A DNA stretch of 16,978 nt from a virus (taxonomy: Duplodnaviria; Heunggongvirae; Uroviricota; Caudoviricetes), in the IMG/VR virus record IMGVR_UViG_2778261643_000006; one strand, 5' to 3'. The position numbers and the translations under genes were made by a program. A model generated the notes under the pieces. The model was not told the DNA's origin and did no database searches. It saw only the letters and a list, made by a program, of their open reading frames with translations. The number at the start of each line of letters is the position of its first letter. Positions within the stretch are counted from its first letter, which is position 1. Positions 1 through 16,616 of the stretch are shown piece by piece.

Positions 1-1009
1 ACAGCTGCCCGGCAGTGACTCCGGCATAATGCCCCGTCAGCGACAACTGGCGGTTAAATTCTTCCCCCCCCTTCTGACCGTCATACCAGGCTTTACCCAG
101 ACCATAGACGGCCGCGGCAATACCGCCAATAACCCAGCCAAGCATCATGCCTTTCGGTGACATCAGTGTGTCTATCCATCCGGCACGGTTAGCCAGCGTT
201 ATCCCGGATCCCCTCAGCGCCCCTAAATTGCCGCGGGCCAGTTCACCTATCAGAACGCCTATCTCCTGGCGGGCTGCTGCACTTTTCAGACCCAGCGAAT
301 GCGTGGCTTTTCCTGCCTGCTCCATTTTGCGGATATACACTTCTGCAGCACTGCTTACCCCCAGCTGGGCTGCCTTAGCACGAAGCAACTCAGAAGATGA
401 AAGATTCAGGCGGGTTGCCTGCTCTTTAAGCTGACGGATAAACGCCACTTTCTGTCGGGTAGCCTCTTCCTCAGCCTGTGTAAGAACACGGGTTTTCGCA
501 GTAACCTCAGAAATCAGCGCCAGATAATCCTGCTGACCAATCCCGCCACTGTTTCTGGCCTGTCGGATCTGCTGCTGAATACGCTGTAATTCCTGCAGCC
601 CCGCACTGGCCTGTTTCACACTGTCAATCTGACGATAAAACGCAGCAGCCGCTTTATCCTGAGCCTCCGCCAGAGCCATGGCCTGCGCCTGTTCCTCGCG
701 CATTTTCTGACTCAGTGCCTCCATGCGCTGGCGGGTTTTCTCCACCTCGCGGGCCATGCGTTCATGAGCCTGTGCGTTCTTCTCCACCGTCTGCGTATGG
801 ACGGATGCGGCTGTTGCAGCCGAAGAAGCTGCCTGCGTTGTCTGCCGGGCGGCCTGAGTCTGACGCTCCATAAAACGCTGCATACGGGCAGAAGACCGTT
901 CTGCATCGCTGGCTGCACCATTCAGAAGGTTTTTGATACGGGGAATTTCATTTTTAAACTCTGCCGCATCAATCCCCAAATCAATGACCAGGTTGGCTAT
1001 CTGGTCCAT
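1..1009 (-). CDS. Tail tape-measure protein, N-terminal part (gene continues beyond the window start)
   Basis: Minus-strand frame is open from ATG at 1007-1009 (GGAGGTG about 6 nt upstream) to the window edge. Translation MDQIANLVIDLGIDAAEFKNE... resembles the lambda gpH N-terminus and contains a hydrophobic GWVIGGIAAAVYGLGKAWY segment. It sits directly downstream of G/T as in lambda. Absent from the ORF track because it runs off the edge. Confidence 0.8.
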   Translation of the reverse strand, partial: MDQIANLVIDLGIDAAEFKNEIPRIKNLLNGAASDAERSSARMQRFMERQTQAARQTTQAASSAATAASVHTQTVEKNAQAHERMAREVEKTRQRMEALSQKMREEQAQAMALAEAQDKAAAAFYRQIDSVKQASAGLQELQRIQQQIRQARNSGGIGQQDYLALISEVTAKTRVLTQAEEEATRQKVAFIRQLKEQATRLNLSSSELLRAKAAQLGVSSAAEVYIRKMEQAGKATHSLGLKSAAARQEIGVLIGELARGNLGALRGSGITLANRAGWIDTLMSPKGMMLGWVIGGIAAAVYGLGKAWYDGQKGGEEFNRQLSLTGHYAGVTAGQL

Positions 1010-1310
1010 AACGCACACCTCCGGAAATACCTTCCCCAAGATGCATCAGTTCTTCGTCCGTTCGCTCCGGTATCCCGTTCTCTTCCGGTAAAAGGCTGAA
1101 ATCAGCCACCGCAGCATCACTGCTGCCGGACACCATTCTCACGATCAATGCCTTCAGCGAGGCAAACTGCGCATCCATCCACACATCACTGAAGCTCTGC
1201 ATCCGGAAATAATCACCCCACTCACCAAGCTCAGTGGCCGACATTTCCGACAGCATCCGCCGCCAGTCTGCCCGCCGGAACTCCCGGGCAAGCCGCATGA
1301 CAAACTGCAT
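981..1310 (-). CDS. Tail assembly chaperone, T-frame segment (gpT-like), probably expressed only as a G-T fusion by -1 frameshift
   Basis: 109-aa ORF in the -1 frame relative to the upstream G-like gene, with the T frame open across the last codons of G. This is the conserved G/GT arrangement upstream of tape-measure genes. Confidence 0.7.
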   Translation of the reverse strand: MQFVMRLAREFRRADWRRMLSEMSATELGEWGDYFRMQSFSDVWMDAQFASLKALIVRMVSGSSDAAVADFSLLPEENGIPERTDEELMHLGEGISGGVRYGPDSQPGH

Positions 1311-1318
1311 TTCCCGCG

Positions 1319-1708
1319 TCAGGACTTTTCCGGCGTCAGCACCTCATGCTCCAAATCCCCGGCATTCTCAATGGCTCCCATACCGCTCAGCGACAGAACC
1401 ATCTCTGCCCCCGCACCCAGGGCATCATACGACCATGTTGTAATAACGGATGCGTAAAGCGTCTCAACATCCTGAGACTGTTCCGCATTCCACAGTGAGC
1501 GGGAAACCAGCCAGGCATTGATATCCATCCCCATCCGCAGAAAAGCAATCTGTCGTTCAGCCTCCGGCAGTTCTCCCTCCCCGGCATCAAACTTTGCCGT
1601 TCGCTGCTGAACAAACGTCAGATATTCAATTCTCTGCAGCCCGGACAGCTCACTGAGCACCACGGACTGTTTTTCATAATTAAACGTGTCCTGTTTCAGA
1701 AACATCAT
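1319..1708 (-). CDS. Tail assembly chaperone gpG-like
   Basis: Translation MMFLKQDTFNYEKQSVVLSELSGLQRIEYL... aligns with lambda gpG (MFLKTESFEHNGVTVTLSELSALQRIEHL...). Start re-assigned to ATG at 1706-1708 with GGTGGAG upstream; the ORF-track start at 1747 would overlap a terminator hairpin. Confidence 0.85.
   Translation of the reverse strand: MMFLKQDTFNYEKQSVVLSELSGLQRIEYLTFVQQRTAKFDAGEGELPEAERQIAFLRMGMDINAWLVSRSLWNAEQSQDVETLYASVITTWSYDALGAGAEMVLSLSGMGAIENAGDLEHEVLTPEKS
1325..1331 (-). other. Candidate -1 programmed frameshift site (G GAA AAG) for the G-T fusion
   Basis: The T frame is open for only about 24 nt upstream of the G stop codon (1319-1321). The only A-rich heptamer in that overlap is GGAAAAG, at the same relative position as the lambda GGGAAAG slippery site. 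P-site re-pairing would be imperfect (GAA to GGA). Confidence 0.45.
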
Positions 1709-1721
1709 GTTCTCCACCTGC

Positions 1722-1745
1722 AAAAAAGCCCCGAATAACCGGGGC
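1722..1745 (-). terminator. Rho-independent terminator downstream of the major tail gene
   Basis: On the minus strand: GCCCCG-GTTATT-CGGGGC hairpin followed by TTTTTT, between the V-like stop (1766) and the G-like start (1708). Confidence 0.6.
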
Positions 1746-1765
1746 AAATGATGAGTATCGTCCTG

Positions 1766-2509
1766 TTAACCTGCTGCGCTGACAGTCACCGCAGCCACAG
1801 CCACAAAATTCCCGTCAGCGGTCATGCCCACAATGCTGACACTGCCCTGCTTCACGCCTTTCACCGTGGCTACAAGCCCGTTCAGGGTCACCGTGGCAGT
1901 CTGTGGATCTGACGAATGCACACTGATCGCTTTGTCACTGGCTCCGTCAGGTTTTACTGTAAAGGTCAGCGTGGTGGTTGCTCCCACTTTTACACTGGCA
2001 GACGCCGGTGATACTGTCAGCCCGGTAACGCTCACGGTTTCAGTGCCTTCCTCTGCCAGATACGGACGCCCCACACCGCTGATTTTCACAGTGCGGGTCA
2101 TCACGTCTTTTGAGGCAATGGTTTTACCCAGTGAGCTCAGCCAGCCACGGAAAACATCAACAGTGCCGTTGGGATATTTGATACGAAACGCGCAGACTTC
2201 ACCGGAGTCGAACAACTGAACCAGTTTTTTCTGCCCGCTGTCACCCGGACGCCAGGCCAGCGTCGCCGAAGTATCACCAACGGATTTCTGCCCCTGGGTT
2301 GTCGTTTTCCAGTCTGCATCTTCATCATCGAGATAAGTGTCATCTTCTGCATCAGCGGTCATTTCGCCAGGTTGCAGATCCTTCACCATCGCAAGACGCA
2401 GCCAGTCAGTGTCCGACAAAGGGTTCGCAAACGCATCGCCGTTGCCGGTATACATCCAGAACGTCGTCCCCGCACCTTTCGTCTTTGCCAGTGGATTTGG
2501 TGTGGTCAT
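1766..2509 (-). CDS. Major tail protein (lambda gpV-like) with C-terminal Ig-like domain
   Basis: Translation MTTPNPLAKTKGAGTTFWMYTGNGDAFANPLSDTDW...YLDDEDADW...FRGW aligns closely with lambda gpV. Start re-assigned to ATG at 2507-2509 preceded by TTAAGGAGGT; the track start at 2584 is an N-terminal extension without SD. C-terminal TVSPASASV...TVTVSAAG resembles a Big_2 Ig-like domain. Confidence 0.9.
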   Translation of the reverse strand: MTTPNPLAKTKGAGTTFWMYTGNGDAFANPLSDTDWLRLAMVKDLQPGEMTADAEDDTYLDDEDADWKTTTQGQKSVGDTSATLAWRPGDSGQKKLVQLFDSGEVCAFRIKYPNGTVDVFRGWLSSLGKTIASKDVMTRTVKISGVGRPYLAEEGTETVSVTGLTVSPASASVKVGATTTLTFTVKPDGASDKAISVHSSDPQTATVTLNGLVATVKGVKQGSVSIVGMTADGNFVAVAAVTVSAAG

Positions 2510-2519
2510 TACCACCTCC

Positions 2520-2921
2520 TTAATTCGTGTACGTGATCTGGTACGTGATTTCCGCCATCGCCCAGGTGGCCATCTCATTATCACGTTGATAGTTAAAACC
2601 GAGTGGGATCAGGGTGTCGATGAGTCCGGAAAGTGCCGGTATATCATTCAGGGCAGGGAAAATGGTGCTCTCCATCCACATATCCAGCTCTGAATCCGGT
2701 GCCTGTGCCCGGATGAAGACGGCAATATGCAGAACAGCCTGCCAGTCATCTTCATCCGTCATTTTTCCGGTGTACTGAGCATCACTCAGCCACACCGCCA
2801 CGGCAGGCAGTTCCTGCGCATCAATAAATGCCGGAAGCCCGTCAAAAAACGTGGCGCTGTCTCCACACTGTTCCCGAAGGCGTGCCAGTACGGCCTGGCG
2901 GATTTGTGTATGTCGGTTCAT
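2520..2921 (-). CDS. Minor tail protein U-like (tail terminator)
   Basis: Translation ...HTQIRQAVLARLREQCGDSATFFDGLPAFIDAQELPAVAVWLSDAQYTGKMTDEDDWQAVLHIAVF...PDSELDMWMEST... aligns with lambda gpU. Start placed at ATG 2919-2921, which matches the lambda U N-terminus and overlaps the Z stop as ATGA; the alternative in-frame ATG is at 2933. Confidence 0.88.
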   Translation of the reverse strand: MNRHTQIRQAVLARLREQCGDSATFFDGLPAFIDAQELPAVAVWLSDAQYTGKMTDEDDWQAVLHIAVFIRAQAPDSELDMWMESTIFPALNDIPALSGLIDTLIPLGFNYQRDNEMATWAMAEITYQITYTN

Positions 2922-3496
2922 CGGGTCAGCCATAACCTCAGTTGTTGTTTCAGTGCATACCCCAGCTGTTTCGGCATTTCCGCAGCAATGATGTGGTCGC
3001 GGGCATCTTCAAATGCCTGTGTCAGCGGTCCGGACAGCGGGATTTTCACCACATCAATGGGGTAACGATTTTTGCCATCAATACGCCGCATCACATGCCA
3101 GCGACCATTCGCCAGTTGCTGAATAAACGCATCCCGGAAAAGATATTTACCCACCTTCAGCACACTGCCACGGTACTGCAGTTTTCCACCACGCCGGGCC
3201 AGTCTGACCCGGGCGGTCCCCAGCTTAATGGCAGGCAGATTGCCCCGGTTAACGCGGATCCTGGCCGTCATTTTTCCTGACGGACTGGCTTTAAACACCC
3301 GGACACGCTGACGTACCAGTTTCAGGGGTATCCCTTTCACCTGGTTATCTCCCGCAACGGTATTCCCGGCAACCTGCCGGGTGGCAACCGAGACCGCTTT
3401 CTGTGCCACACGGTTTATCGCCCATGCGCTGGCCTGTGGCACCATACGGGTATCAAGGCTGTTCAGATTGCGGATGGCATTCTCAAGCCCCTTCAT
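2918..3496 (-). CDS. Minor tail protein Z-like
   Basis: 192 aa, the same length as lambda gpZ, with strong similarity (ours FIQQLANGRWHVMRRIDGKNRYPIDVVKIP vs lambda FIQQLKNGRWHVMQRVAGKNRYPIDVVKIP). AGAGGTG precedes the ATG at 3494-3496. Confidence 0.9.
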   Translation of the reverse strand: MKGLENAIRNLNSLDTRMVPQASAWAINRVAQKAVSVATRQVAGNTVAGDNQVKGIPLKLVRQRVRVFKASPSGKMTARIRVNRGNLPAIKLGTARVRLARRGGKLQYRGSVLKVGKYLFRDAFIQQLANGRWHVMRRIDGKNRYPIDVVKIPLSGPLTQAFEDARDHIIAAEMPKQLGYALKQQLRLWLTR

Positions 3497-3507
3497 CCCA
3501 CACCTCT

Positions 3508-3783
3508 TTACTCAATAAAGATCATTGGCTTACCGTTAAAGCGTTCATGCCGTGTGACCGTCCAATGTTGTCCGTCATAAACAACGCGATCCCCGCGCCG
3601 TGGGCGGTATCCCGAAGAAAACACCACCAGAGAGACCGCAGGTCCGGACAGAGCATTCAGCTCTGCCAGTGTTTCTCCCGGGATCACAGTCATATCGACA
3701 TCATTAATCGAGGCTGTCTTTCCCATCTTTCTGACCGTGATCGCATCCATACGCGCTGCCAGCCGGGAAAAGGGATCAGACAT
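3508..3783 (-). CDS. Head-tail attachment protein (lambda gpFII-like)
   Basis: 91 aa; MSDPFSRLAARMDAITVRKMGKTASI...PRRGDRVVYDGQHWTVTRH parallels lambda FII (MADFDNLFDAAIARADETIRGYMGTSATI...LRRGDTLTIGEENFWVDRV). Position between head and tail genes. Confidence 0.7.
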   Translation of the reverse strand: MSDPFSRLAARMDAITVRKMGKTASINDVDMTVIPGETLAELNALSGPAVSLVVFSSGYRPRRGDRVVYDGQHWTVTRHERFNGKPMIFIE

Positions 3784-4099
3784 TGAGTTTTACCGGCACT
3801 TCTTCTGCACTGGTTCCGGCATCTGCCCAGACAACCCCGACCAGCGGATCAGAGCCGCTGTTAGTCAGCTGAACTTTTCCGGACTTCAGATAAACCTTCT
3901 TACCCGTTTTCATGTCATCCGTTTTCAGCTTAGGCAGCATAAACACACCTTCGGTCAGGACGTCGCCTGTTTCACCCTGTGGAATATCGGTCAGCGCCAC
4001 CGCAAAAACATCACCCACCTGCACCAGGTCTCCGCTGCTGATGGCTGCACTGGCAACAATCGCCACCGTTTTTCCTTCTTCTACAAAATTCTTTGCCAT
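3776..4099 (-). CDS. Small head-associated protein, DUF2190-like (putative decoration or capsid accessory protein)
   Basis: Translation from MAKNFVEEGKTVAIVASAAISSGDLVQVGDVFAVALTDIPQGETGDVLTEGVFMLPK... has the Gly/Val-rich pattern of DUF2190 proteins found next to major capsid genes. Start re-assigned to ATG 4097-4099 with GGAG upstream; the track start at 4144 lies inside the capsid terminator. Confidence 0.55.
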   Translation of the reverse strand: MAKNFVEEGKTVAIVASAAISSGDLVQVGDVFAVALTDIPQGETGDVLTEGVFMLPKLKTDDMKTGKKVYLKSGKVQLTNSGSDPLVGVVWADAGTSAEEVPVKLNV

Positions 4100-4140
4100 A
4101 ACTGTCTCCGCACAGCCCCGTTCAGGGGCTGATTTCAGGT

Positions 4141-4161
4141 ACAAAAAAAGCCCTTACGGGC
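4141..4161 (-). terminator. Rho-independent terminator downstream of the major capsid ORF
   Basis: On the minus strand: GCCC-GTAA-GGGC hairpin followed by TTTTTTTGT, between the capsid stop (4186) and the next start (4099). Confidence 0.65.
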
Positions 4162-4185
4162 CATCAGAATTGTTGTCTGCGACGT

Positions 4186-6213
4186 TTACGCCGTACATTT
4201 CACCAGACCGCGGTGATCAACTGGCGCGACACCGGCGTCAATACGCACTTTCGTTGTCACGCCATCCACACTGAAGCCCTCCATCTGATCAATATATGGC
4301 GTATCCACACCGTTGAGATAAGCCACTTCAATCGTATCGGAGCCTTTTGACGCAGCCAGGTAGAAGGTGGTCTGGCTGTTATCATCAAGACGAGGCTCTG
4401 CAATAACGGTCGCAAAATCTTTCACCGGGTTAATAATACCGGCGTTAATGTCAGCCCCCTTGACACTTGAGGAGCGAATGACCTGGTTAGCAACAGACTC
4501 CATCGCCGTCGGTACCAGTACGAACGCAGGACGAATATTCAGATGACGCTCCCCCTCTTTCTGAACGCGCATCAACTGGCGGGCTTTATCCAGCGATGCC
4601 ACGTCCATTGCAGCGCTCTCCAGTACGTTTGCATGTTTCGCTTTATCGAACAGACTTACATTATCTGTGGAGATTTTCGGGTTAGACGTCAGAATGGCAT
4701 AAACCAGATCGGCAATGGTGGATTTCGCCGCACGGCCCAGTTTCATCGGGACATCGGTCAGCATATTCAGATCATCATTGATAATGGCCTGACGGGTGAT
4801 ACTGAACAGCTCGCCATAGGTCGCCAGTGCAATAGTGGCCTGTTTATCTCCGGTGGTGACGTATTTATATTCCGCCCCTTCACGCACCTGACGCAGAGCA
4901 CTGAAGCCACCCATACCCACACGATGGGCAATTTTAAAATCAGACAACTGACCTTTCCGCGTCCACTGTTCATAGGTTTCAGGGGCATCTTCCCAGCCCT
5001 GCAGAATGGCTTTGTTCGCAACATCCAGCAGAATATTACCGAAGTCAGACGTACTGTGTGTGAACGCCGCACCGACCATCTGCATCGGGTTATAACCGGA
5101 AACCCCAATACCCCGTTCAGTTAGTGACATACGGGCATATTCACGCAGGGTCATCCCGTTGTAGACATTATCACGTTCGGTTTTTTCAAATCCGGCACGC
5201 GCCATCAGCGCCTGGCGGATCCCGTCCCCCACAAAATTACCGTTACCGGCATAAATATGAGCCGGGGTATTTTTATTGGATGGCGTGGACTCGCGCCCCA
5301 TCTCGTTCAACAGCTTTTCACGGGCCTGCTCCAGCGAACATTCAGGATCGGCAAGACACTGGGCCTGCAGCATCTGATAACGCCCGCCAAACATGGCAAA
5401 CAGATCATTAATACCGTTTACACGCGCTTTTTGCTCTGCCAGTACCTGCGCACGGATACTGTTTTCATCCACCACGGGTGCTGCTGCCTGCACTGGCGTC
5501 CGGGAGGCTGCAGGTTCATCATCCTGTACGCGTGGAGCACTGTTGCGTGGCGGAGTAATCATGTTTCGAATGGATTCCGGCATCTTTTTAAATTCCTCTG
5601 TACGTTTTGACTGAATACATGCCATTGCCTTAACGGCTGGTGTCACCTGATCAGCAAATCCCTGTGCCAGACATTCGGCACCGGACATCCAGGTCTCATC
5701 CGCCAGCATGGCAGCAATTTCATCGGTGGTTTTCCCGGTTTTCTGTGCATAAGCGGGTAACAGAACCGCCTCAACTTTATCGAGCAGGTCGGCATAGGTG
5801 CGCATGTCCTCCGCATCACCGCCCGTAAAGCCAAATGGTTTATGAATCATCATGAAGGAGTTTTCCGGCATAATGACCGGGTTTCCCACCATCGCAATGA
5901 CCGACGCCATTGACGCCGCCACACCGTCGACATAAACGGTAATGGACGCACCATGTGTTTTCAGTGCATTAAAAATGGCGATGCCTTCAAAGACATCGCC
6001 ACCCGGTGAATTGATATGGAGATTAATGTGGGTGATATCGCCCAGTGCATTCAGATCACTGATAAACTGCTTCGCTGTAACACCCCAGAAACCAATCTCG
6101 TCATAAATATAAATATCCGCGTCACTCTGGTGACCAGCCTGCATCCTGAACCAGGAATTATTCTTCGGACTGGTCGTCGGTGTGCTGCGGCTACTGTCGT
6201 TTCGTTGCGGCAC
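4186..6213 (-). CDS. Prohead protease (ClpP/S49-like) - scaffold-like linker - major capsid protein fusion
   Basis: One uninterrupted ORF. N-terminal part (DIYIYDEIGFWG...INSPGGDVFEGIAIFNAL...ASMASVIAMVG...MIHKP) looks like a ClpP-like phage prohead protease. A charged, Ala/Gln-rich middle segment is scaffold-like. The C-terminal roughly 330 aa looks like a major capsid protein, of a family not recalled with certainty. Start proposed at GTG 6211-6213 (AAGGAGG 5 nt upstream), overlapping the portal 3' end as lambda C overlaps B; alternative ATG at 6144. Confidence 0.75.
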   Translation of the reverse strand: MPQRNDSSRSTPTTSPKNNSWFRMQAGHQSDADIYIYDEIGFWGVTAKQFISDLNALGDITHINLHINSPGGDVFEGIAIFNALKTHGASITVYVDGVAASMASVIAMVGNPVIMPENSFMMIHKPFGFTGGDAEDMRTYADLLDKVEAVLLPAYAQKTGKTTDEIAAMLADETWMSGAECLAQGFADQVTPAVKAMACIQSKRTEEFKKMPESIRNMITPPRNSAPRVQDDEPAASRTPVQAAAPVVDENSIRAQVLAEQKARVNGINDLFAMFGGRYQMLQAQCLADPECSLEQAREKLLNEMGRESTPSNKNTPAHIYAGNGNFVGDGIRQALMARAGFEKTERDNVYNGMTLREYARMSLTERGIGVSGYNPMQMVGAAFTHSTSDFGNILLDVANKAILQGWEDAPETYEQWTRKGQLSDFKIAHRVGMGGFSALRQVREGAEYKYVTTGDKQATIALATYGELFSITRQAIINDDLNMLTDVPMKLGRAAKSTIADLVYAILTSNPKISTDNVSLFDKAKHANVLESAAMDVASLDKARQLMRVQKEGERHLNIRPAFVLVPTAMESVANQVIRSSSVKGADINAGIINPVKDFATVIAEPRLDDNSQTTFYLAASKGSDTIEVAYLNGVDTPYIDQMEGFSVDGVTTKVRIDAGVAPVDHRGLVKCTA

Positions 6214-7666
6214 TGCTGCCTCCTTTATCACTGGCCGGATCGGTATCAAATACCAGATCCAGCTTGCGGTTTTCATCAATTTCGGCCTTGCGCCGACGTT
6301 TGACATCATCCGGATTACGACCACCTGCACGTACCCAGTCTGATTCTGTCGCCGCTCCACCACGAATCTGAATTTTCCAGGCCTCAGCCTCCTTAACAGG
6401 GTCAATCCACGGCATCACCGGTCCGGAATACACCGCGGTATACAGTGAAGAACGGTCAAGATCGCGGGGTAGCCTGATAACACCGGATGCCACAGCCTGT
6501 TTCAGCCAGGCACGATACATCGGGCGGGTGACGGCACCAATAAACCAGTCCTGCAGGATCAGGTAGCCATCAGTGGATTCAACCAGCTCCTGACGCTGGG
6601 CGCTGTAAGTGCCGTTATAGTTGCGTGCCGTACTGGAAAAACTCAGACGACTGCCCGCCGCCACGGCACGCAACTGACCATTACGAAAAGTTTCAAGGTT
6701 AGGATTGGGACGATCCGACTTCACCATTCCGATTTCTTCGCCGGGTTTCAGATCGTCGTAAATAATGCCTGGCTGAATGGTAAGCTCGCGTTCCTTATCC
6801 TTGCTGCCATTACCATCCGGTTCATAGCTCTGCCCGTCGCCTTTCCGGATGTACATCCCCAGAGCAGCGGCGATCCTTGCTGCAGTCAGCTCAGAATCTT
6901 CATACTCTTTCAGGGCACTGAGGCGGATCAGCACACCGGACAACAAAGACGTCCCGCGCATCTGGTGCAGACGGCGAACAAATTTAAGATGCAGCATTCG
7001 CTCTGCATCCACTTCTTTGGTTTCCATCTGCCGTCCGGATACGGGACGACTTTTATACACCAGATATTTTTCGGGACGCCCCCAGTCATCAACAAACACG
7101 CCCTGATTCAGCCTGTTGCTCTCATCACTGGTCATGGGAATAAAGTCCGGCTCGAGTGCCTCCAGCCAGAAATGAACACCGGCAGAAGGCGTCAGGCTGT
7201 TTATGCGCCCGGAAACCATCTGGGCAAACACCTCACCATCGCGCAGCCAGGTACGCAGCATCAGACGTTCCAGCATCGGACGGGTAAACTGCCCGGTGAC
7301 TTCCGGGCTGACAGACCATTCACTCCATCGGATGCGAATCTCCGCAGCCAGGTCACGGGCAATGGCCCCATTGCGTAATACCGGATGTGGCTCGACAATA
7401 ATCCCGTTTTTCCCCACCACCCGTTCTTCCAGCTTGTCAAATACACCAATGACCAGATCGTGGTTGTTATCAAGGTAACGGGCCTGCTCACGTAACGACA
7501 CGGCCCCGTACTGGCTTAACTGGTCGGCAGTTCGGTTTTCCCGCCGGGCTTTGTGTGTCCGCGTCGTTTTTACGGCCTCATAAGCCTGGATCACCGCACG
7601 GGAACGCAGCCTTGCCGCTTTCCATCCTGGTGAAAAAACGCCAATCACATCATCAAGAATTGCCAT
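6191..7666 (-). CDS. Portal protein (lambda gpB family)
   Basis: About 490 aa ORF between terminase and capsid genes, with portal-like composition and position. Start re-assigned to ATG 7664-7666 (MAILDDVIGVFSPGWKAARL...), which overlaps the W-like stop as TGATG. Confidence 0.88.
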   Translation of the reverse strand: MAILDDVIGVFSPGWKAARLRSRAVIQAYEAVKTTRTHKARRENRTADQLSQYGAVSLREQARYLDNNHDLVIGVFDKLEERVVGKNGIIVEPHPVLRNGAIARDLAAEIRIRWSEWSVSPEVTGQFTRPMLERLMLRTWLRDGEVFAQMVSGRINSLTPSAGVHFWLEALEPDFIPMTSDESNRLNQGVFVDDWGRPEKYLVYKSRPVSGRQMETKEVDAERMLHLKFVRRLHQMRGTSLLSGVLIRLSALKEYEDSELTAARIAAALGMYIRKGDGQSYEPDGNGSKDKERELTIQPGIIYDDLKPGEEIGMVKSDRPNPNLETFRNGQLRAVAAGSRLSFSSTARNYNGTYSAQRQELVESTDGYLILQDWFIGAVTRPMYRAWLKQAVASGVIRLPRDLDRSSLYTAVYSGPVMPWIDPVKEAEAWKIQIRGGAATESDWVRAGGRNPDDVKRRRKAEIDENRKLDLVFDTDPASDKGGSSAATKRQ

Positions 7667-7878
7667 CAGAACCTCGCCAGCCGGTACCCGGGATGCCCCC
7701 GTCGTCGTGTAATCAGAGCCGCAAGGCGGCGCTCCCACTCCTGCCGCCCCTGCCGGATCTCAGATAAGTTTTCCATGGTCATCTGCTGACCATTAAAGGT
7801 GACGGATTTTCCGTCCAGCACCGCCATTTCAGCTTCCGTATAACGCTGAATCATGGCTTCGATATCATTCTGGTTCAT
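7666..7878 (-). CDS. Head-tail joining protein (lambda gpW-like)
   Basis: About 70 aa with C-terminal ...ITRRRGHPGYRLARF, resembling the lambda gpW C-terminus (...TQRRRGPAGFYV). Start at ATG 7876-7878 with GGAGG 6 nt upstream, overlapping the terminase stop as ATGA. Confidence 0.75.
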   Translation of the reverse strand: MNQNDIEAMIQRYTEAEMAVLDGKSVTFNGQQMTMENLSEIRQGRQEWERRLAALITRRRGHPGYRLARF

Positions 7879-9974
7879 AACCATCCTCCGGAAGTCAGCC
7901 AGGGGTTAACATCGTCAGTTACTGTTTTCTTCCGTTTTTGTTTTTTAACAGGCGTGGATACCGGTTCCGGTGTGGGTGACGGTTCGGTACTGTCCGGGAC
8001 ACACTCCAGCCAGGTTTCCCGGCTCGCCCACTCCGGTGCATCCGGCCAGCGGATCTTTTCGTATCCATGCAGAATGACCAGAGCCTCGGCATACACCATC
8101 AGGTCAAAAGCTTCGTTGGCACCGCGACCTGGCTTACTCCATTTCCCGTCACTGCTCCGCTCTTCATACGTCAGTTCGTCGTAAAACCAACTCCCCAGCC
8201 AGTCAGGGAAATGCACATAGCCGGGACCTGGCGAGTCACGCCATAACGCGTTATTCACCCGGTCTTTCAGTGCATCCGTCTGAAGAAGCCAGAGCGGCAC
8301 ATCACCTGCGGCCTGCGCCCGTCGGCCCGTTCGTCCGGTGTTATCAGGGAATGTACGGGTGATCAGTTTTGCGCGCCGGATGCTGTCGCCCTTAAACAGG
8401 TAAATACGTTTACCAAGGCCATCACGACGGCAACGACGCCAGAATTTATAGGCATTATCAGTGACCCCGTCTTCACCGCCGGAGTCCACCGCCATTGCCA
8501 TCAGTCGCATTTGTTGAGAAGGATCGGAGGCCAGCGGCCAGCTTTTATGAAAAACATCCGTCAGCAGGACATCCCAGTCTTCCGGATAGCTGGCCGGATC
8601 AATTCGCTGGCTCTCCCCGTCGCTGTCACCGCGCAATGACTGCGTGATGTTGTAACGATCAATAATCCAGCGTTCGCCACGGCTGCCATAGCCCGTTACC
8701 TGAACCACAAAACGGCGATGACGTCCCGCCTGCACATCCACTGTCGCCACAAGGAAATTAATGCCATCCGGCACACTGCGGGAAGGAACTGGCTCTGCCC
8801 GCTGCTCAAGCAGTTCACTTTTTCGTTGCTCCATGCTGGCACGAGGAAGATAAGGCAATCCCCAGTCGGTGTTGATAACCGCCCTGAGTGTTTCTTCGCT
8901 TCCTGTCGCTTCATACTCCTGTTCTGCAGTCAGTAATTTGTAAACCAGTTGCGCCCAGGTCTGATACGCAGCAGCTGGCCCTTCCATCCAGAAACTGGCG
9001 ATACGGGAGCGGCGCGGTTCACCGGAAACGTTGCCGTTACGATCAATGACCTGACCTTCACGCAACCAGACTCCTGCACTATTGAGCTCACGCTTTTTCT
9101 CCGCAGTGATAATGCCGCTGCAGTGCGGGCAAAGTAGATACGCCGCCTCACTGGCTTTAAAGGGATCCGGTTCATTACGGTAGCCGGTCATGGCATCCAT
9201 GGCTGGCTGAAAATATTCACCGCAGTGCGGACATGACCAGTACCAGCGGCGGCGGTCACCACGATTGTAAAGGGAAAGAATACCAGTCGTCGGTGGCGCT
9301 TCATGAGGCGACTTACGTCGCCATTTGCTGTCGCAGATGTCACGTCCCGGCGAGCTCTCCACCAGAGTCATCCCGGCGGACATAAATGTGGTGGTACGTT
9401 TTGAGGCCAGGGAGAAACCATCACCCTCGCTGTCGATATTCTCCGGAAAACGGTCGTAATCGGTTAAGGCGACAAACCGGTAATCCGACGACGACATAAT
9501 GTTGACCGAGGGCCAACCAATTTTAAGGAACGAGCCATCCCTGAACGTCTTATCATGGACATTATTGTCGTTACGACGTGGACTCATTCTTTTCTTTACC
9601 GCCGCACTGCTTCTGAACGTTCTGTCGAGGCGCTTTTTAGAATGCTCGCGGGCCTTATCTTCGGTCATCTGCACAACGAGCATGTCCGAAGGATCGCAAA
9701 CGATGGTATAGACAATCCATCCATCGATCAGACCAATGGTCTTCCCTGTTCGCGCAGGACCAACAAAAATCACCGCATCGTATTCACGCGATGCCAGGCA
9801 GTTCATGGGCTCAATGATGTAGGGTGTCAGTTCAGGATCCCATGGCACCGAGTTACCAGCCCCCTTGGGAACACGCATGAATTTTTTAACAGCCTCCGAA
9901 ATCGGCATGCGACGTGGTGGGGAAAATCCTGCCGATATGTCCCTTCCCAAATTTCGGGCTGATGAAAAACCCAT
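7875..9974 (-). CDS. Terminase large subunit (lambda gpA-like)
   Basis: 699 aa. N-terminal ATPase region with Walker A-like VGPARTGKT, paired Cys motifs (CPHCGEYF...CPHCSG) and a C-terminal nuclease region, in the arrangement of lambda gpA. ATG 9972-9974 is preceded by GGAGG directly after the Nu1-like stop. Confidence 0.92.
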   Translation of the reverse strand: MGFSSARNLGRDISAGFSPPRRMPISEAVKKFMRVPKGAGNSVPWDPELTPYIIEPMNCLASREYDAVIFVGPARTGKTIGLIDGWIVYTIVCDPSDMLVVQMTEDKAREHSKKRLDRTFRSSAAVKKRMSPRRNDNNVHDKTFRDGSFLKIGWPSVNIMSSSDYRFVALTDYDRFPENIDSEGDGFSLASKRTTTFMSAGMTLVESSPGRDICDSKWRRKSPHEAPPTTGILSLYNRGDRRRWYWSCPHCGEYFQPAMDAMTGYRNEPDPFKASEAAYLLCPHCSGIITAEKKRELNSAGVWLREGQVIDRNGNVSGEPRRSRIASFWMEGPAAAYQTWAQLVYKLLTAEQEYEATGSEETLRAVINTDWGLPYLPRASMEQRKSELLEQRAEPVPSRSVPDGINFLVATVDVQAGRHRRFVVQVTGYGSRGERWIIDRYNITQSLRGDSDGESQRIDPASYPEDWDVLLTDVFHKSWPLASDPSQQMRLMAMAVDSGGEDGVTDNAYKFWRRCRRDGLGKRIYLFKGDSIRRAKLITRTFPDNTGRTGRRAQAAGDVPLWLLQTDALKDRVNNALWRDSPGPGYVHFPDWLGSWFYDELTYEERSSDGKWSKPGRGANEAFDLMVYAEALVILHGYEKIRWPDAPEWASRETWLECVPDSTEPSPTPEPVSTPVKKQKRKKTVTDDVNPWLTSGGWL

Positions 9975-9982
9975 TATTCCTC

Positions 9983-10510
9983 CTAGAGACTCTCTCCTTC
10001 CTCATCAGGAATTAATTCAGCAGCACAAGCCTCGTAGGATTTTTCCTGAAGAGTGTATCGCAGGTCATCAATTGCCTGCTGTACAACGCCGACGGCCTGA
10101 GGAGTCAGGGCGCAATCGCGTTCAAGAACATCCGGAATTGTCTCCAGAACCTGGACGACAGCCTTTCTCATGGACGAATAGACGATGACTACTTCATCAA
10201 CGGGGATGAGTTTTCGCTGCTCCTTTTCCAGCTTGATCCTTTCATTTTCAGACTGGTACCAGTCCTTTCTCTCTTTCGGCTCCATACGGGATGGATCATG
10301 AACAGAGTCTGCTGCCTCATGCTTCACACTAAACAGGGCTGGCCCGACATGCTGCAGGGCGTAAACGGGGTTCCCCCTGACAGTCGCAGCCACAGGAGTG
10401 TTGGCCGCGAGACGCCGTTTTTTTACTGTGTCCCGGTGAAGCCCAAAGGCCTCAGCGATTTTAAAAACACTCCAGTAATAAGCATCACCGATCCCGCTCA
10501 CATTTGACAT
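9983..10510 (-). CDS. Terminase small subunit (lambda Nu1-like)
   Basis: N-terminal helix-turn-helix-like region (YYWSVFKIAEAFGLHRDTVKKR) and ERKDWYQSENERIKLEKEQRKL parallel lambda Nu1 (KWYAERDAEIENEKLRREVEEL). Sits directly upstream of the large subunit. Start re-assigned to ATG 10508-10510 (GGAG upstream). Confidence 0.75.
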   Translation of the reverse strand: MSNVSGIGDAYYWSVFKIAEAFGLHRDTVKKRRLAANTPVAATVRGNPVYALQHVGPALFSVKHEAADSVHDPSRMEPKERKDWYQSENERIKLEKEQRKLIPVDEVVIVYSSMRKAVVQVLETIPDVLERDCALTPQAVGVVQQAIDDLRYTLQEKSYEACAAELIPDEEGESL

Positions 10511-10539
10511 AAGCAACTCCATCTGGCAGGTGAAAATCA

Positions 10540-10734
10540 TGTTTATTTATATATTTCAATTAATTGTAAACTGATCTAATGACAGGGAGAAAAAAATATT
10601 GTACAGGTAAAAAGAGAAATAACTTTTAATTATCAATAAATTACCAAACATGCTGCCGCCGCCATGGAAATGCAAAAACTAGCCTTTTTCCGCGACGCTC
10701 CCGCCCCGTGGCAGGGGCCCCCACCGGGAGGACC
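10540..10734 (-). other. Putative cos region (cosN-like core near 10690-10710, cosB-like AT-rich segment toward Nu1)
   Basis: Minus strand reads CACGGGGCGGGAGCGTCGCGGAAAAAGG, closely parallel to lambda cosN and flanks (TTACGGGGCGGCGACCTCGCGGGTTTTCGC), followed by an AT-rich segment before the Nu1-like start, as in lambda. Confidence 0.45.
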
Positions 10735-10783
10735 CGACAGCCTGACAGCCTGACAGCCTGACAGCCTGACAGCCGTGACGAGC
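10735..10783. repeat. Direct tandem repeat of the octamer CTGACAGC (4 perfect copies with degenerate flanking copies)
   Basis: Read directly: cgacagc ctgacagc ctgacagc ctgacagc ctgacagc cgtgacgagc. Units are head-to-tail with no spacers. Located on the upstream (cosQ) side of the cosN-like core. Confidence 0.9.
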
Positions 10784-10910
10784 ATCTGATACAGCGCTTT
10801 ACATAATGGCATAGGAATAATTCAGAAGGACATCACAGCATGCCCACACAAATTAGTGTGAGTGTCCTGTTTCTTCCTACGCACAGGACTGACGAGCATG
10901 AGGGGAAAAT

Positions 10911-11078
10911 ATGCGAACCATAAATGCCTCATCTTCAGCAATGCAGCCGGCATCCGAACAGGACGATATTGTAAATTCACCTAATTACGAGGACATTGCA
11001 GTAGTTGAATTGCAGCTCTGTATTAGCCTGACAGTGACAGAATGCGATATTGACTCTGTCACAGGTGAAATAGTTTGA
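10911..11078 (+). CDS. Hypothetical small acidic protein (55 aa)
   Basis: ATG at 10911 preceded by GAGGGGAAAAT; translation MRTINASSSAMQPASEQDDIVNSPNYEDIAVVELQLCISLTVTECDIDSVTGEIV. Below the ORF-track size cutoff. Convergent with the 68-aa ORF. Confidence 0.35.
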   Translation: MRTINASSSAMQPASEQDDIVNSPNYEDIAVVELQLCISLTVTECDIDSVTGEIV

Positions 11079-11098
11079 ATGATTAGCAGTTATGGTGC

Positions 11099-11305
11099 TC
11101 AGTCAACCACCAGGGAATAATCCTTCGAATTCTTATCGTGCTTCACCAACGCTGCCTCAATTGCCCTGAATGCTTCCAGAGACACCTGATGTTCTATACA
11201 TGCAATTACAACATCCGGGTAACTCATAGAAATGGTGCTATTAAGCATATTTTTTACACGAATCAGATCCAACGAGAGTTCATCAGCAGATTGTTCTTTA
11301 TTCAT
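11099..11305 (-). CDS. Hypothetical small protein (68 aa)
   Basis: ATG 11303-11305 with GGAG upstream; protein-like composition ([68 protein letters not shown]). The antisense track ORF 11138-11344 is Cys/His/Arg/Phe-rich and looks spurious. Confidence 0.5.
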
Positions 11306-11605
11306 TTTGTCGCTCCATGCGTTTGCTCGTCATCTAGCGGTTAAAATATTACTTCAAATCTTACTGCATAAAAGAGGAAAAGTATGAAAGTTTGAGTACA
11401 TCGACCTTACATACATCTGTCGGTTGCATATCCCTCCTGGATGCCAGCAAGGCTCAATTTTGTTACGCAATCAACACTATTCATTAAAAACAGGCTTAAT
11501 ATTTGACATAAATCATCAACAAAACACAAAGAGGTCAGACCAGATTGAAACAATAAACACGATAATGCAAACTACGCGCCATCGTATCACATGGAAGGTT
11601 TACCA

Positions 11606-12016
11606 ATGGCTCAGGCTGCCATTTTTAAAGAAATATTCGATCAAGTGCGTAAAGATTTAAACTGTGAATTATTTTATTCTGAGCTAAAACGTCACAATAT
11701 CTCACTTTATATTTACTATTTAGCCACAGATAATATTCACATTGTGTTAGAAAACGACAACATAGTGTTAGTAAAAGGACTCAAAAAGGTTGTAAATGTT
11801 AAATTCTCCAGAAACAAACATCTTATAGAGACCTCCTATAATAAGTTGAAATCAAAAGAAATCACATTTCAACAATACAGGGAAAATCTTGCTAAAGCAG
11901 GAGTTTTCCGATGGGTTACAAATATCCAGGAACACCAAAGATATTACTATGCCTTTGATAACTCATTACTATTTACTGAAAGCATCCAGAAAACTACACA
12001 GATCTTACCACGCTAA
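11606..12016 (+). CDS. DUF1398-family protein (YdfO/YbcV-like), 136 aa
   Basis: ATG 11606 preceded by GGAAGG; translation [51 protein letters not shown].... Length and position (between cos/terminase and gnsB) match K-12 Qin ydfO as recalled; the family assignment is from memory. Confidence 0.65.
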
Positions 12017-12024
12017 ACCATAAC

Positions 12025-12053
12025 GTCCGGCTTCTCTCACTCCTGAGCCGGAC
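12025..12053 (+). terminator. Hairpin downstream of the YdfO-like gene (possible weak terminator)
   Basis: GTCCGGCT - 13-nt loop - AGCCGGAC, followed by TGCATTGGTTT; the U-tract is weak. Confidence 0.3.
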
Positions 12054-12104
12054 TGCATTGGTTTAATAAAAACCATCAACAATTGTGATTTAGATATTCG
12101 GAAC

Positions 12105-12140
12105 CATTCAAATATAACAAAACCCCGTAAAAACGAGGTT
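12105..12140 (-). terminator. Putative Rho-independent terminator downstream of the gnsB-like gene
   Basis: On the minus strand: AACCTCG-TTTTTA-CGGGGTT imperfect hairpin followed by TTGTTATATTTG. Confidence 0.4.
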
Positions 12141-12167
12141 TATGGATAAATTTTATTATTGAATACA

Positions 12168-12344
12168 TCAGATTAAATTAATCTTGACATCATAGCTTTC
12201 AAGACCCGTCATTTTTTCCCGTGCGGTAAACTGAATACTGGTAACTTCTTTCCCGGTCTTTTTCTTAAGTTCAATAATTTTTTTTGTTATATATTCAGAA
12301 ATATCTGCTTCTGCTTTTGTTTTTAAGTTTTCAATATTCATCAT
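12168..12344 (-). CDS. gnsB: GnsA/GnsB-family small protein (58 aa)
   Basis: Not in the ORF track (under 60 aa). Translation MMNIENLKTKAEADISEYITKKIIELKKKTGKEVTSIQFTAREKMTGLESYDVKINLI matches the GnsA/GnsB family. AAGAGGAA precedes ATG 12342-12344. Confidence 0.8.
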   Translation of the reverse strand: MMNIENLKTKAEADISEYITKKIIELKKKTGKEVTSIQFTAREKMTGLESYDVKINLI

Positions 12345-12389
12345 TTCCTCTTTTAGTCTGTTATGACTTTCCAGTTACACAGTAAGTCG

Positions 12390-12420
12390 ATTATATGGTG
12401 CAAACGTGTAAAAGATAAGA
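12390..12420 (-). promoter_or_regulatory. Candidate sigma70 promoter for the gnsB-like gene (perfect -10 TATAAT, weak -35)
   Basis: Minus strand TATAAT at 12395-12390, about 45 nt upstream of the gnsB-like ATG; best -35 at 17-nt spacing is TTATCT. Confidence 0.3.
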
Positions 12421-12512
12421 TGAAACATCGCAATAATCAACATACGATAGTCTAAATTTTACACAAACAGACAAAGAGAATTTTCCTGAATTATCAATAC
12501 AATAGCATCAAA

Positions 12513-12743
12513 TCAACTCAAGAGCCTTATTGCTGCTTCCAGAATTTCTTCTGAAGTAACATGTCGATCCGCGGCTACATAAATGACTTTATGATCTCCG
12601 GTCAGAGATGGAAACCCTGCGGCCATTACAGTAAGGTGTGTTTTTTCGCCATTTGGATATTCACGCATGATGGTGTTAACTCCAGTCATCGCTGGCACTA
12701 CCACTGCTGGTTCAGAGTTAAAAAAAACTATGATTTTTTTCAT
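12513..12743 (-). CDS. Small protein, YnfN-like by position (76 aa from ATG)
   Basis: Translation MKKIIVFFNSEPAVVVPAMTGVNTIMREYPNGEKTHLTVMAAGFPSLTGDHKVIYVAADRHVTSEEILEAAIRLLS. The track ORF begins at an upstream TTG; ATG at 12741-12743 chosen, with weak SD. The gene between gnsB and cspI in K-12 Qin is ynfN; the sequence itself was not recognised. Confidence 0.6.
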   Translation of the reverse strand: MKKIIVFFNSEPAVVVPAMTGVNTIMREYPNGEKTHLTVMAAGFPSLTGDHKVIYVAADRHVTSEEILEAAIRLLS

Positions 12744-12785
12744 GATGTTACCGTAGTATGTGAGTATCCATCGAATAGATACCAA

Positions 12786-12807
12786 GCAAAAAAGCTCCCG
12801 AAGGAGC
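12786..12807 (-). terminator. Rho-independent terminator downstream of cspI
   Basis: On the minus strand: GCTCC-TTCG-GGAGC hairpin followed by TTTTTTG, about 200 nt downstream of the cspI stop. Confidence 0.6.
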
Positions 12808-13014
12808 CTTCATTTTCACTTTTTTAAATCCAACGACAGACGGCTGGCATTTAAGTATTGTGAAATATTATCAAATGTAATCATCATTGATTTACAAAAG
12901 ATACATTTTGCCCCGAAAGGATTCATGTCAGAAACATCAAAAGATGATGTTCTATACTGGGAACCATGACAACACGGGCATCTAAAGTGAATATGGTTTG
13001 TAATATTGTCTACC

Positions 13015-13227
13015 TCAAAGCGCCACTACATGAACAGCGGCAGGACCTTTAGGTCCGTTCTCAATACCAAATTCAACTTCCTGATTCTCAGTTAATGTTT
13101 TGAAATCGTTGCTCTGAATTGCTGAGAAATGGACAAACACATCTTTGCTGCCATCTTTCGGCGTGATGAAACCAAAACCTTTTTCAGGGTTAAACCATTT
13201 CACTAAACCAGTCATTTTGTTAGACAT
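13015..13227 (-). CDS. cspI: Cold-shock protein CspI (CspA family)
   Basis: 70 aa, [70 protein letters not shown], with canonical cold-shock RNP motifs (KGFGFI, VFVHF). Matches K-12 Qin CspI as recalled. Confidence 0.9.
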
Positions 13228-13323
13228 AATTATTACCTTTTGAAGAAATTAGCCCTTGGGCAGAATGGTCCGAAAAAAAATATCAGAGAGAAAAACCAAC
13301 AAGGAAATCTCAAGAGGTACAAA

Positions 13324-13345
13324 TAATAAAATTATAACAATGACT
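13324..13345 (-). promoter_or_regulatory. Candidate extended -10 promoter (TGtTATAAT) for cspI
   Basis: Minus strand TG-T-TATAAT at 13339-13331, about 100 nt upstream of the cspI ATG within an AT-rich leader region. No convincing -35. Confidence 0.3.
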
Positions 13346-13590
13346 GCTTCAGATAAATTTGTAACAAACCAGAACACCATTAACGCATGATTAACCACCC
13401 ATAGCAAGGATTACTTTTGTAAAGAAAAACACAGCAATGAAAGAATAGCTTTATTTATTAATAATAACGTGTCATTCTGATTAAGACCTTTTATCTTACC
13501 CTTAAGATTTCAGGAATTTTGGCTCATGGAAGAGTCCTTTTTATTTAAATTTTACATTCCGCGATGTAAATGTTCCGATTTAATATTACC

Positions 13591-14614
<1,024 letters not shown>

Positions 14615-14618
<4 letters not shown>

Positions 14619-14926
14619 ATATATTTATGATGAGGACGCTCGTGCTTATTGGCAGGATTTTCAATCTTAAAGGAGTACTGATGCTGCAGATAAGACTCAA
14701 CTTTTTCTGACAATTTTTCTGCTACTTCCAGGAAGACTTGCCGGACGCTCCTTCTGGCTGCTGCCTCATAAAACTCCAGCGCAGCTCCTTCAACACGGTC
14801 CATGGCGACATCCAGGTCAAAAATTTCACCGTCAAAGCGTTCTTTGTCCTGTAAGGCTACAGTTACCGTAACTTTATTCTCAAAATTACGGACTCCTTTC
14901 ACAACCAGTTCATAGTCTTGAGTCAT
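14615..14926 (-). CDS. YdfR-like protein of unknown function (103 aa), inside the lysis cassette
   Basis: ATG 14924-14926 is 5 nt after the holin stop, with AGGAG inside the holin 3' end; its stop overlaps the endolysin ATG as ATGA. Length and position match K-12 Qin ydfR as recalled. No recognisable catalytic motif or hydrophobic segment. Confidence 0.7.
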
Positions 14927-14930
14927 TGGA

Positions 14931-15146
14931 TTACTCTCCTCTCGCAGCCTTACGCCTGTCTTCTTTAATCTTGAAATAAAGATTTGTCAGATACGTCAGC
15001 AGGCCAAAAACCAGGCTACCCAGCACACCGATTGCAGCCCACTGTGACGGAGTTACTTTATCGAGTAACTGCAATGCCCAGAAACCAGCATTACCCGCCG
15101 ATGTGCCATAGGCAACACCTGTTGTTAACTTATCCATTGATTTCAT
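14931..15146 (-). CDS. Class II holin / pinholin (phage 21 S21-like) with dual-start motif
   Basis: From [71 protein letters not shown] (71 aa), near-identical in pattern to P21 S21 with its Met-Lys-Ser-Met dual start. The track ORF has a 25-aa N-terminal extension, rejected. Coordinates are from ORF-track arithmetic; my base counting near 15060 was off by one. Confidence 0.85.
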
Positions 15147-15365
15147 ATCCTCACCCCGATGTACACGGATGGTGCAATATGTTTGAAAAGATCGGAGTCT
15201 ACGGGGTAGTTTTGACAGCACACGCTGTTCTCAACGGCGCTAAAGAAACATACACATTAAAAATGTGAGTAATTATTTTGAAAGAAAGTCATATATAAAA
15301 TAATAATACGAGAAATGTTTTCATATTTAGTGTACTGTATACGGCCATTTATACAGGAAAAGCCT

Positions 15366-15536
15366 ATGTCAGAACGTAAAGACTCAAAATCACGCCGTAA
15401 TTATCTCGTTAAATGTTCCTGCCCAAACTGCACCCAAGAGTCAGAACACAGTTTTTCAAGAGTACAAAAAGGTGCCCTTTTGATCTGCCCTCATTGCAAC
15501 AAAGTATTCCAGACAAATCTTAAAGCTGTAGCCTGA
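15366..15536 (+). CDS. Small zinc-ribbon protein (56 aa; two CxxC pairs)
   Basis: ATG 15366 preceded by AGGAAA; translation MSERKDSKSRRNYLVKCSCPNCTQESEHSFSRVQKGALLICPHCNKVFQTNLKAVA with CPNC...CPHC. Possibly corresponds to a small Qin zinc-binding protein, but not recognised with certainty. Confidence 0.55.
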   Translation: MSERKDSKSRRNYLVKCSCPNCTQESEHSFSRVQKGALLICPHCNKVFQTNLKAVA

Positions 15537-15594
15537 TTGATTTTATTAGTAACAAGTATTTTTTATATTTTAATAATATATTTAAAGCAGATAA

Positions 15595-15616
15595 TAAAAA
15601 ACCCGCCTGAGCGGGT
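15595..15616 (-). terminator. Rho-independent terminator (strong on minus strand, possibly bidirectional)
   Basis: Plus strand AAAAAA-ACCCGC-CTGA-GCGGGT-TTGAG. On the minus strand the hairpin is followed by TTTTTTATTAT. Lies about 285 nt downstream of the cspB stop and about 60 nt downstream of the zinc-ribbon ORF. Confidence 0.7.
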
Positions 15617-15899
15617 TTGAGATTGTGGTGCTTTTTGTGGGAGTCATCCACTTACGCACTTTGTTTTGCCATGCCAGCAGTTAGCTTCTGCTGTAAAACT
15701 ATTCATGCAGCAAACCTGCACTTCACCACAATGGTTAGCATACTTTTCCTGATTAAGATTTTGCCAAATATGCTGGCCATTGTTTCATGTATTGGACCTC
15801 CTTAATTTTTATTAAAGAAATCCAATATTCACTACTCTGTCCGTATCTCTACTCAGGCATCAGCCTTCTTCGTTATCGTATACAGACGAGCGATGAATT

Positions 15900-16115
15900 T
15901 TAATCAGTAATGATGACATTTGCTGCTGCAGGACCTTTAGCACCACTCTCTATAGAGAAGGTAACCTTTTGACCTTCAAATAAGGTTCGATAATTATCAT
16001 TCTGAATCGCAGAAAAATGCACAAACACATCTTTACTACCATCAACAGGAGAAATAAAGCCGAAACCTTTATCAGCGTTAAACCATTTTACTAAACCAGT
16101 CATTTTATTTGACAT
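15900..16115 (-). CDS. cspB: Cold-shock protein CspB (CspA family)
   Basis: 71 aa, [71 protein letters not shown]. Divergent from cspF as in K-12 Qin. Confidence 0.9.
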
Positions 16116-16415
16116 TCTACATTCCTTAACTTGAGCCTTTCGGCATAAATGGTTTGCATAACAGAAACGACTTCGTACTTAATTGGAGAGACTCAAAGAA
16201 GGAATAAGTGAATAACACCTGAAATGAGAACTGCTTTAGTAAACTACTTCGTATATCGTCTGTTCTTCAAACCGACGCAATCATTAACGCATAGTTGAAC
16301 ATATGAAGCAATGTTTATTTTAGACATCCAGCCATCTTCAACCCCATCAAAAAACTATAGCTTTCTTCAGGAACGTGTGTATAGTGCGCCAAGTTATCAG
16401 TATTAAGGAATTTTT

Positions 16416-16616
16416 TTGTCCCGTAAAATGACAGGAATTGTCAAAACCTTTGACGGCAAAAGCGGCAAGGGTCTTATCACCCCATCCGATGGTCGTATCG
16501 ATGTCCAGCTTCATGTTTCAGCGCTCAATCTCCGCGATGCAGAAGAAATTACCACCGGATTACGCGTGGAATTTTGCCGGATAAATGGTCTGCGTGGCCC
16601 TTCAGCTGCCAGGTGA
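16416..16616 (+). CDS. cspF: Cold-shock-like protein CspF, 3' end interrupted by IS1 (last codons and stop supplied by the IS1 terminus)
   Basis: TTG start at 16416 with TAAGGAA 5 nt upstream; [27 protein letters not shown]...[16 protein letters not shown]. The ORF stops at TGA 16614-16616, inside the IS1 left end beginning at 16612 (GCC AGG TGA). CspA-family proteins normally extend a few residues past GPxAA. Confidence 0.75.

Follow-up and report, generated by a model that had tools for sequence, protein, structure and literature searches.

In lambda-like phages the 7-bp cosQ is highly conserved (PMC4669245), and it is needed for the nicking of the downstream cosN at packaging termination (PMC4669245, PMC4856287); a 238-bp lambda segment described as including cosQ, cosN and cosB has served as the cos insert in plasmid substrates (PMC4856287). 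Lambda cosB contains short repeats, the R sites; located in the interval from cosN to the TerS gene, they are dispersed, some of them in inverted orientation, and correspond to the specificity of the TerS DNA-binding domain. Elsewhere in bacteria, tandem 8-bp boxes make up the operators of MetJ, and VNTRs, or short tandem repeats, are the kind of locus used in MLVA typing. Typical features of a bacterial VNTR are perfect head-to-tail units, whole-unit alleles within otherwise identical flanks, an intergenic position, expansion only where a perfect two-copy seed is present, and an allele spectrum dominated by small alleles.

The locus examined here is a tandem octamer array in a 16,978-bp stretch of DNA (hereafter the window), a minus-strand lambdoid prophage of the Qin/cdtI type. 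Our analysis indicates that the array is probably a VNTR that arose through slipped-strand mispairing in a non-coding stretch just beyond cosQ, where it is most likely neutral. The locus appears to be undescribed, although the kind to which it belongs is already known: we found no paper mentioning the repeat or a VNTR at a lambdoid cos, and a text search with the cosQ heptamer gave only irrelevant papers.

Results

The genetic setting of the array can be read from a near-identical prophage in the porcine isolate E. coli CV839-06 (L001), whose RefSeq annotation shows tail genes, a ClpP-like protease/capsid fusion, a portal gene, the large terminase and a DUF1441 gene in the TerS position. Beyond the DUF1441 gene there is a gap, followed by ybcW-, ybcV- and gnsB-like genes, cold-shock genes and lysis genes. 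Upstream of prophage cold-shock genes of the cspI and cspB types, the window has two Rfam matches to the cspA thermoregulator (12988-13373 and 15884-16276, both on the minus strand; 113 and 159 bits). A second tandem repeat, at 11739-11780 (period 21, 2 copies, 85% matches), lies inside an ORF (11591-12016, plus strand) that corresponds in position to the DUF1398 gene of the near-identical prophage.

The cos nick could be placed from the records of two phages. As the record of phage cdtI begins at window position 10706 and that of phage Tritos finishes at 10707, the cohesive end is GGGCGGGAGCGT and the nick lies between these two positions; the cohesive end matches that of lambda, GGGCGGCGACCT, at 8 of 12 positions. 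The heptamer GGGTCCT is found 22 nt from the nick in the window and 23 nt from it in lambda, and at a like distance in cdtI and, among the matches listed, in dozens of IMG/VR cos loci. In phage orientation, the right end reads ...GGCTGTCAGGCTGTC-GGGTCCT-CCCGGTGGGGGCCCCTGCCACG in the window, ...CACTTTAC-GGGTCCT-TTCCGGTGATCCGACAGGTTACG in lambda and ...CATTTTGGC-GGGTCCT-TCCGGTGGGGTGGCCTGCCACG in cdtI. Lambda cosQ reportedly occupies exactly 48473-48479 (Wieczorek and Feiss 2001), and it is because of these coordinates, the shared heptamer, its distance from the nick and the literature on cosQ that we assign cosQ to the heptamer in the window (Table 1).

The distance from the nick to the array is 28-77 bp, on the side of cosQ, and the array adjoins the heptamer directly, its first degenerate unit overlapping the outer two bases of cosQ. 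A preliminary description made from the sequence of the window had put the array beside the cos core and on the side where lambda carries cosQ, and both placements are borne out by the record ends of cdtI and Tritos and by the position of GGGTCCT; the direct abutment on a conserved heptamer is absent from that description. Its further statement that lambda has no such array also holds, as there is none at the lambda right end.

Table 1. Features of the cos region and the neighboring terminase genes (window coordinates)
Feature	Position	Strand	Basis or remark
Large terminase (TerL), lambda gpA type, ATPase and endonuclease domains	7875..9974	-	Pfam PF05876 E = 4e-80, PF20454 E = 4e-86
Small terminase (TerS)-position gene, DUF1441 family	9983..10540	-	Pfam PF07278 E = 6.8e-44; RefSeq annotation of near-identical prophage
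cosB-equivalent, AT-rich, between cosN and TerS start	10541..10694	-	Inferred by position only
12-nt cohesive end (cosN core)	10695..10706	-	cdtI and Tritos record ends
cosQ-equivalent heptamer GGGTCCT	10729..10735	-	Same heptamer in lambda, cdtI and IMG/VR cos loci
Whole octamer tandem array	10734..10783	.	Sequence read, Tandem Repeats Finder, direct-repeat families D1/D2
First degenerate unit	10734-10741		Sequence read
Perfect core, four units	10742-10773	.	Part varying (1-4 units) among relatives
Degenerate end unit	10774-10783		Sequence read
Non-coding block common to class A and class B before divergence, with one-unit repeat form	10784..10925	.	Alignment

Read directly, the array consists of CCGACAGC, four perfect copies of CTGACAGC and a degenerate end, CGTGACGAGC, and Tandem Repeats Finder reports 10736-10779 with a period of 8, 5.4 copies, 97% matches and a score of 79, so that the four perfect and two degenerate copies of a near-palindromic 8-bp unit noticed at the outset are recovered by both routes. 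The octamer includes a 7-nt near-palindrome, CTG-A-CAG. The start-to-start spacing of 8 equals the length of the unit, and the units are contiguous with no unique spacers between them; a CRISPR array, which would need such spacers, was accordingly rejected, as it had been in the preliminary description. Exact matches to CTGACAGC number four in the entire window, all of them contiguous within the array. When one mismatch is allowed there are 30 matches, compared to 12.1 ± 3.6 in dinucleotide-preserving shuffles (n = 200), none of which (0/200) reaches 30. The copies are thus contiguous beyond chance, and the array is a genuine short tandem repeat.

Partial copies dispersed around the site were considered and set aside as either not beyond chance or not conserved. 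A lone extra repeat junction, AGCCTGACAG, at 11025-11034 lacks conservation in relatives; two copies of the 10-mer TGACGAGCAT are present (10776-10785 and 10890-10899), a number equaled in 16 of 200 shuffles; and a 26-nt direct repeat of 77% identity flanks cos, with one copy in the cosB interval (10563-10588) and the other ~260 bp beyond cosQ (10968-10993), and may be due to chance. The non-coding block that follows the array includes an inverted repeat, GTCCTGT (10864-10870) and ACAGGAC (10883-10889), and the block as a whole gave no Rfam, promoter or terminator match.

What lies at the corresponding position in other phages was established with an IMG/VR scan using a 16-nt cosQ core, CCCACCGGGAGGACCC, which returned at least 120 stretches. 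Among the matches listed, the DNA just outside cosQ sorts into three groups. Class A, the version in the window, has GACAGC followed by one to four CTGACAGC units and then CGTGA(C/T)GAGCAT. Class B, a sister version, has GTCAGC, a single CTGACAGC and then (CA/TC)TGACGAAC; exactly one unit is present in 57/57 of these loci, and three further class B loci carry a point-mutated unit, with no expansion in any of them among the matches listed. In the third group, comprising many phages among the matches listed, the same cosQ and a lambda-like cosN are accompanied by unrelated DNA at the position of the array, for example a GC-rich hairpin with a T-run or the lambda-like TGATAATGATTATCA. We note as a separate observation that lambda (48446-48466; L191 847-867) and loci L042, L050, L066, L085, L086, L089 and L105 have a Fur-box-like palindrome (gatgataatcattatcac / TGATAATGATTATCA) at this position, and that some of these loci add, ~55-75 bp out, TTTAGACGTCTAAACGTCT, which amounts to two tandem MetJ met-box-like octamers.

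Class A was then counted with the GGAGGACCCGACAGC-CTGACAGC junction as query, in a complete IMG/VR scan (51 contigs) and a metagenome scan (30 contigs). One perfect unit is present in 38 of the 81 contigs (24 from IMG/VR and 14 from metagenomes) and two in 37 (24 and 13), with three units found in five (2 and 3) and four in just one (1 and 0). That sole four-unit contig, L125, is an IMG isolate contig 99.98% identical to the window over 11 kb and therefore belongs to the window's own lineage; the allele of four perfect units carried by the window is at once the longest seen and the rarest. Among 5,426 complete RefSeq genomes of E. coli surveyed with the 221-bp cos region, 947 hold at least 80% of the query, and the full-length matches span 213, 205 or 197 bp, corresponding to the loss of one, two or three units. 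The best 17 matches are of the 213-bp kind and the next of 205 bp, with others of 197 bp, and the four-unit allele is absent from the full-length matches in these genomes.

That these are whole-unit differences between otherwise matching sequences is clearest in the closest relatives. Over 16,611 bp (1-16611) the window and the CV839-06 prophage share 99.93% identity, the differences being three substitutions and one gap that is exactly one repeat unit. Identical 300+300-bp flanks carry different counts, three versus four units in one case and one versus two in another. Furthermore, the downstream SNP backgrounds CGTGAC and CGTGAT are each found with one, two and three units; CGTGAT occurs mostly with two and CGTGAC mostly with one, so copy number is partly associated with lineage and the tract is therefore unstable, but not extremely so. 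The isolated phage Tritos has two units, and phages HannyBb and mEp460_ev081 have a mutated unit, CTGACAAC. Phage cdtI has no octamers, and its DNA beside cosQ is unrelated, although its TerS gene and cosB show 97% DNA identity and its cosN and cosQ are the same. The same octamer, in tandem runs of at least three copies, is also found sporadically among unrelated bacteria and archaea (33 stretches in 30 contigs). The check proposed in the preliminary description, a count of units in related prophages, thus yields one to four units in whole 8-bp steps among near-identical relatives, which is what its suggestion of a slippage-prone tract varying between strains had anticipated.

Two variants of TerS are found at these loci, one of 179-185 aa, as in the window, and one of 164 aa, as in loci such as L002 and L005. 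They have the C-terminal half in common and differ in an unrelated N-terminal half, presumed to be the DNA-binding part. The variable array adjoins both variants, which argues against its being a TerS-specific binding array. Both right-end versions also occur with each TerS variant, which makes cos a mosaic recombination joint, and it is at this joint of lambdoid genomes that the array sits.

Signals that would give the array a role in expression were sought and not found. Neither a promoter nor a terminator consensus was detected near the array in the scan; Rfam gave no match at the array either at the gathering score or at E <= 1; and the array folds no better than shuffles on both strands (z = -1.0 as RNA and -0.7 as DNA). 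A structured RNA or Rfam family, for which there was neither a covariance-model match nor a fold beyond shuffles, was rejected, and so was a hairpin or cruciform formed by the near-palindromic units, the folding energies lying within one standard deviation of those of shuffles. No ORF keeps its frame across the alleles, and none of the ORFs of the array has a Pfam match.

Discussion

The array described here has the marks of a bacterial VNTR as outlined above, and differs from the usual case in being modest (an 8-bp unit in one to four copies), in lying in a prophage and in being placed against a cos subsite. Whole-unit differences in copy number separate near-identical sequences in each of the comparisons available, namely the 81 contigs, the matched flanks, the CV839-06 prophage and the E. 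coli genomes. Classes A and B are one base apart: GTCAGCCTGACAGCC in class B corresponds in class A to a perfect 15-nt tandem, GACAGCCTGACAGCC, and, among the matches listed, expansion is seen only in class A (GACAGC, one to four units), the interrupted GTCAGC seed never having expanded. This restriction is what one would expect if a substitution had produced the seed for slippage.

In the model we favor, the ancestral form would be that kept in class B, GTCAGC-CTGACAGC-C(A/T)TGACGA, an imperfect triple. A T-to-A change in the window's lineage would then have created the perfect tandem and, once it was in place, replication slippage would add or remove whole 8-bp units. The array would be dispensable for cos recognition, nicking or termination, and it seems most likely that it is selectively neutral. 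One observation that sits less easily with neutrality is that both right-end versions retain a conserved one-unit core (G[A/T]CAGCCTGACAGC..TGACGA), and this could reflect constraint and not just shared ancestry.

It is natural to ask whether a repeat so close to cosQ might contribute to packaging. As an accessory packaging element, its octamers would bind terminase or a DNA-bending host protein, or alter DNA mechanics, thereby tuning cosQ recognition and cosN nicking, with copy number setting the strength. The array adjoins cosQ on the approach side of the translocating complex (cosQ mechanism: PMC4856287), and the conserved one-unit core would be in keeping with such a role. However, cdtI, lambda and, among the matches listed, many phages with the same cosQ and cosN have no array; copy number varies freely from one to four, one unit being as common as two; the array occurs with two different TerS DNA-binding domains; and no similar motif exists in the cosB interval. 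The lambda segment that serves as a cos insert starts only 27 bp outside cosQ (PMC4856287), and even isolated phages differ in the array, as the two units of Tritos and the mutated unit of HannyBb show. We consider an accessory packaging role unlikely. The specific proposal of the preliminary description, a phased array for binding terminase, IHF or a host factor, fares no better: the array is missing from cdtI, which shares cosN, cosQ and the TerS gene, it varies in Tritos and HannyBb, it accompanies both TerS DNA-binding domains, and its 8-bp period does not match the helical repeat of ~10.5 bp. That description had named, as what would count against such an array, its absence or random variation in packaging-competent relatives together with a lack of effect on packaging when deleted; in the relatives we find the first of these.

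Nor does the array correspond to any of the known cos subsites. It resembles the R sites in consisting of short repeats near cosN in a lambda-like cos region, but it is on the cosQ side, is strictly tandem and accompanies two TerS N-terminal domains; with no octamer copy within one mismatch in 10541-10694 and no co-variation with the type of TerS, the idea that it represents TerS-binding R sites was rejected. The heptamer that the array touches is like lambda cosQ in sequence and in its distance from the nick, whereas the array itself is outside the heptamer, variable in length, and missing from lambda, cdtI and many phages with the same cosQ among the matches listed, and is therefore not part of cosQ. 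More generally, it is not conserved in phages with the same cos and terminase (cdtI, lambda and the IMG/VR matches listed). Relatives with one to four copies, or none, argue for an ordinary slippage-prone repeat and not for a working part of the packaging site.

The main residual alternative, itself improbable, is a quantitative effect on termination, which is conceivable from the sequence since terminase would cross the array just before reaching cosQ and since the first unit overlaps cosQ by 2 nt. One form that this might take is an 'approach ramp', in which the number of near-palindromic units alters DNA mechanics, or transiently binds terminase, in the last 30-80 bp before cosQ and so changes the recognition of cosQ and cosN. 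We think this decidedly unlikely; if it were true, variation in copy number would constitute a heritable, reversible dial on the efficiency or processivity of termination.

A different possibility is that the array is a contingency switch, with the gain or loss of units shifting a small ORF (10812..10633, minus strand, spanning the closed cos) or a promoter or RNA element and thereby making expression phase-variable. Since 8 bp is not a whole number of codons, every unit gained or lost shifts the frame; with any number of copies from one to six, an ORF of 41-59 codons beginning with ATG runs through the array without a stop; and every unit includes CTGACA, a 5/6 match to the -35 hexamer. Against this, the minus-strand ORF has neither a Shine-Dalgarno sequence on reading nor a Pfam match, it crosses the cos cut site, and its C-terminus differs with each allele; it stays open only because the region is GC-rich. 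A plus-strand ORF of 55 codons at 10911 has ACG instead of ATG in relatives, and nothing was found near the array by the promoter and terminator scan, by Rfam or by the folding tests. A contingency switch is, in our assessment, very improbable.

Finally, we find it scarcely credible that the array is an 8-bp-phased operator of the met-box type, or a Chi-like RecBCD signal at the exposed right end. The tandem 8-bp periodicity is indeed one that also typifies MetJ operators, which have two to five units, and the minus-strand unit, GCTGTCAG, starts like Chi (GCTGGTGG) and in the orientation that Chi activity requires. However, no unit comes within 2 mismatches of the met box, AGACGTCT, the best register matching the consensus at only 4/8, and no promoter was found near the array for MetJ to repress. 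Likewise, the units match Chi at 5/8, and neither GCTGGTGG nor a single-base variant of it occurs in 10700-10800. Both candidates were rejected on these grounds.

If the array is the VNTR that we believe it to be, the main value of the analysis lies in a negative result: a conspicuous repeat beside a packaging site proves to be an ordinary length-polymorphic tract, and it should therefore not be annotated as a cos subsite. The alleles also form a natural insertion series, in which circulating prophages and isolated phages tolerate 8, 16 and 24 extra bp lying directly against cosQ, in agreement with the view that cosQ is a compact heptamer and that the sequence on its outer side can vary freely. 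The locus could also be used for typing at a fine scale within this widespread family of E. coli prophages, as its rate of change is comparable to that at which 16 kb of sequence gains a handful of substitutions.
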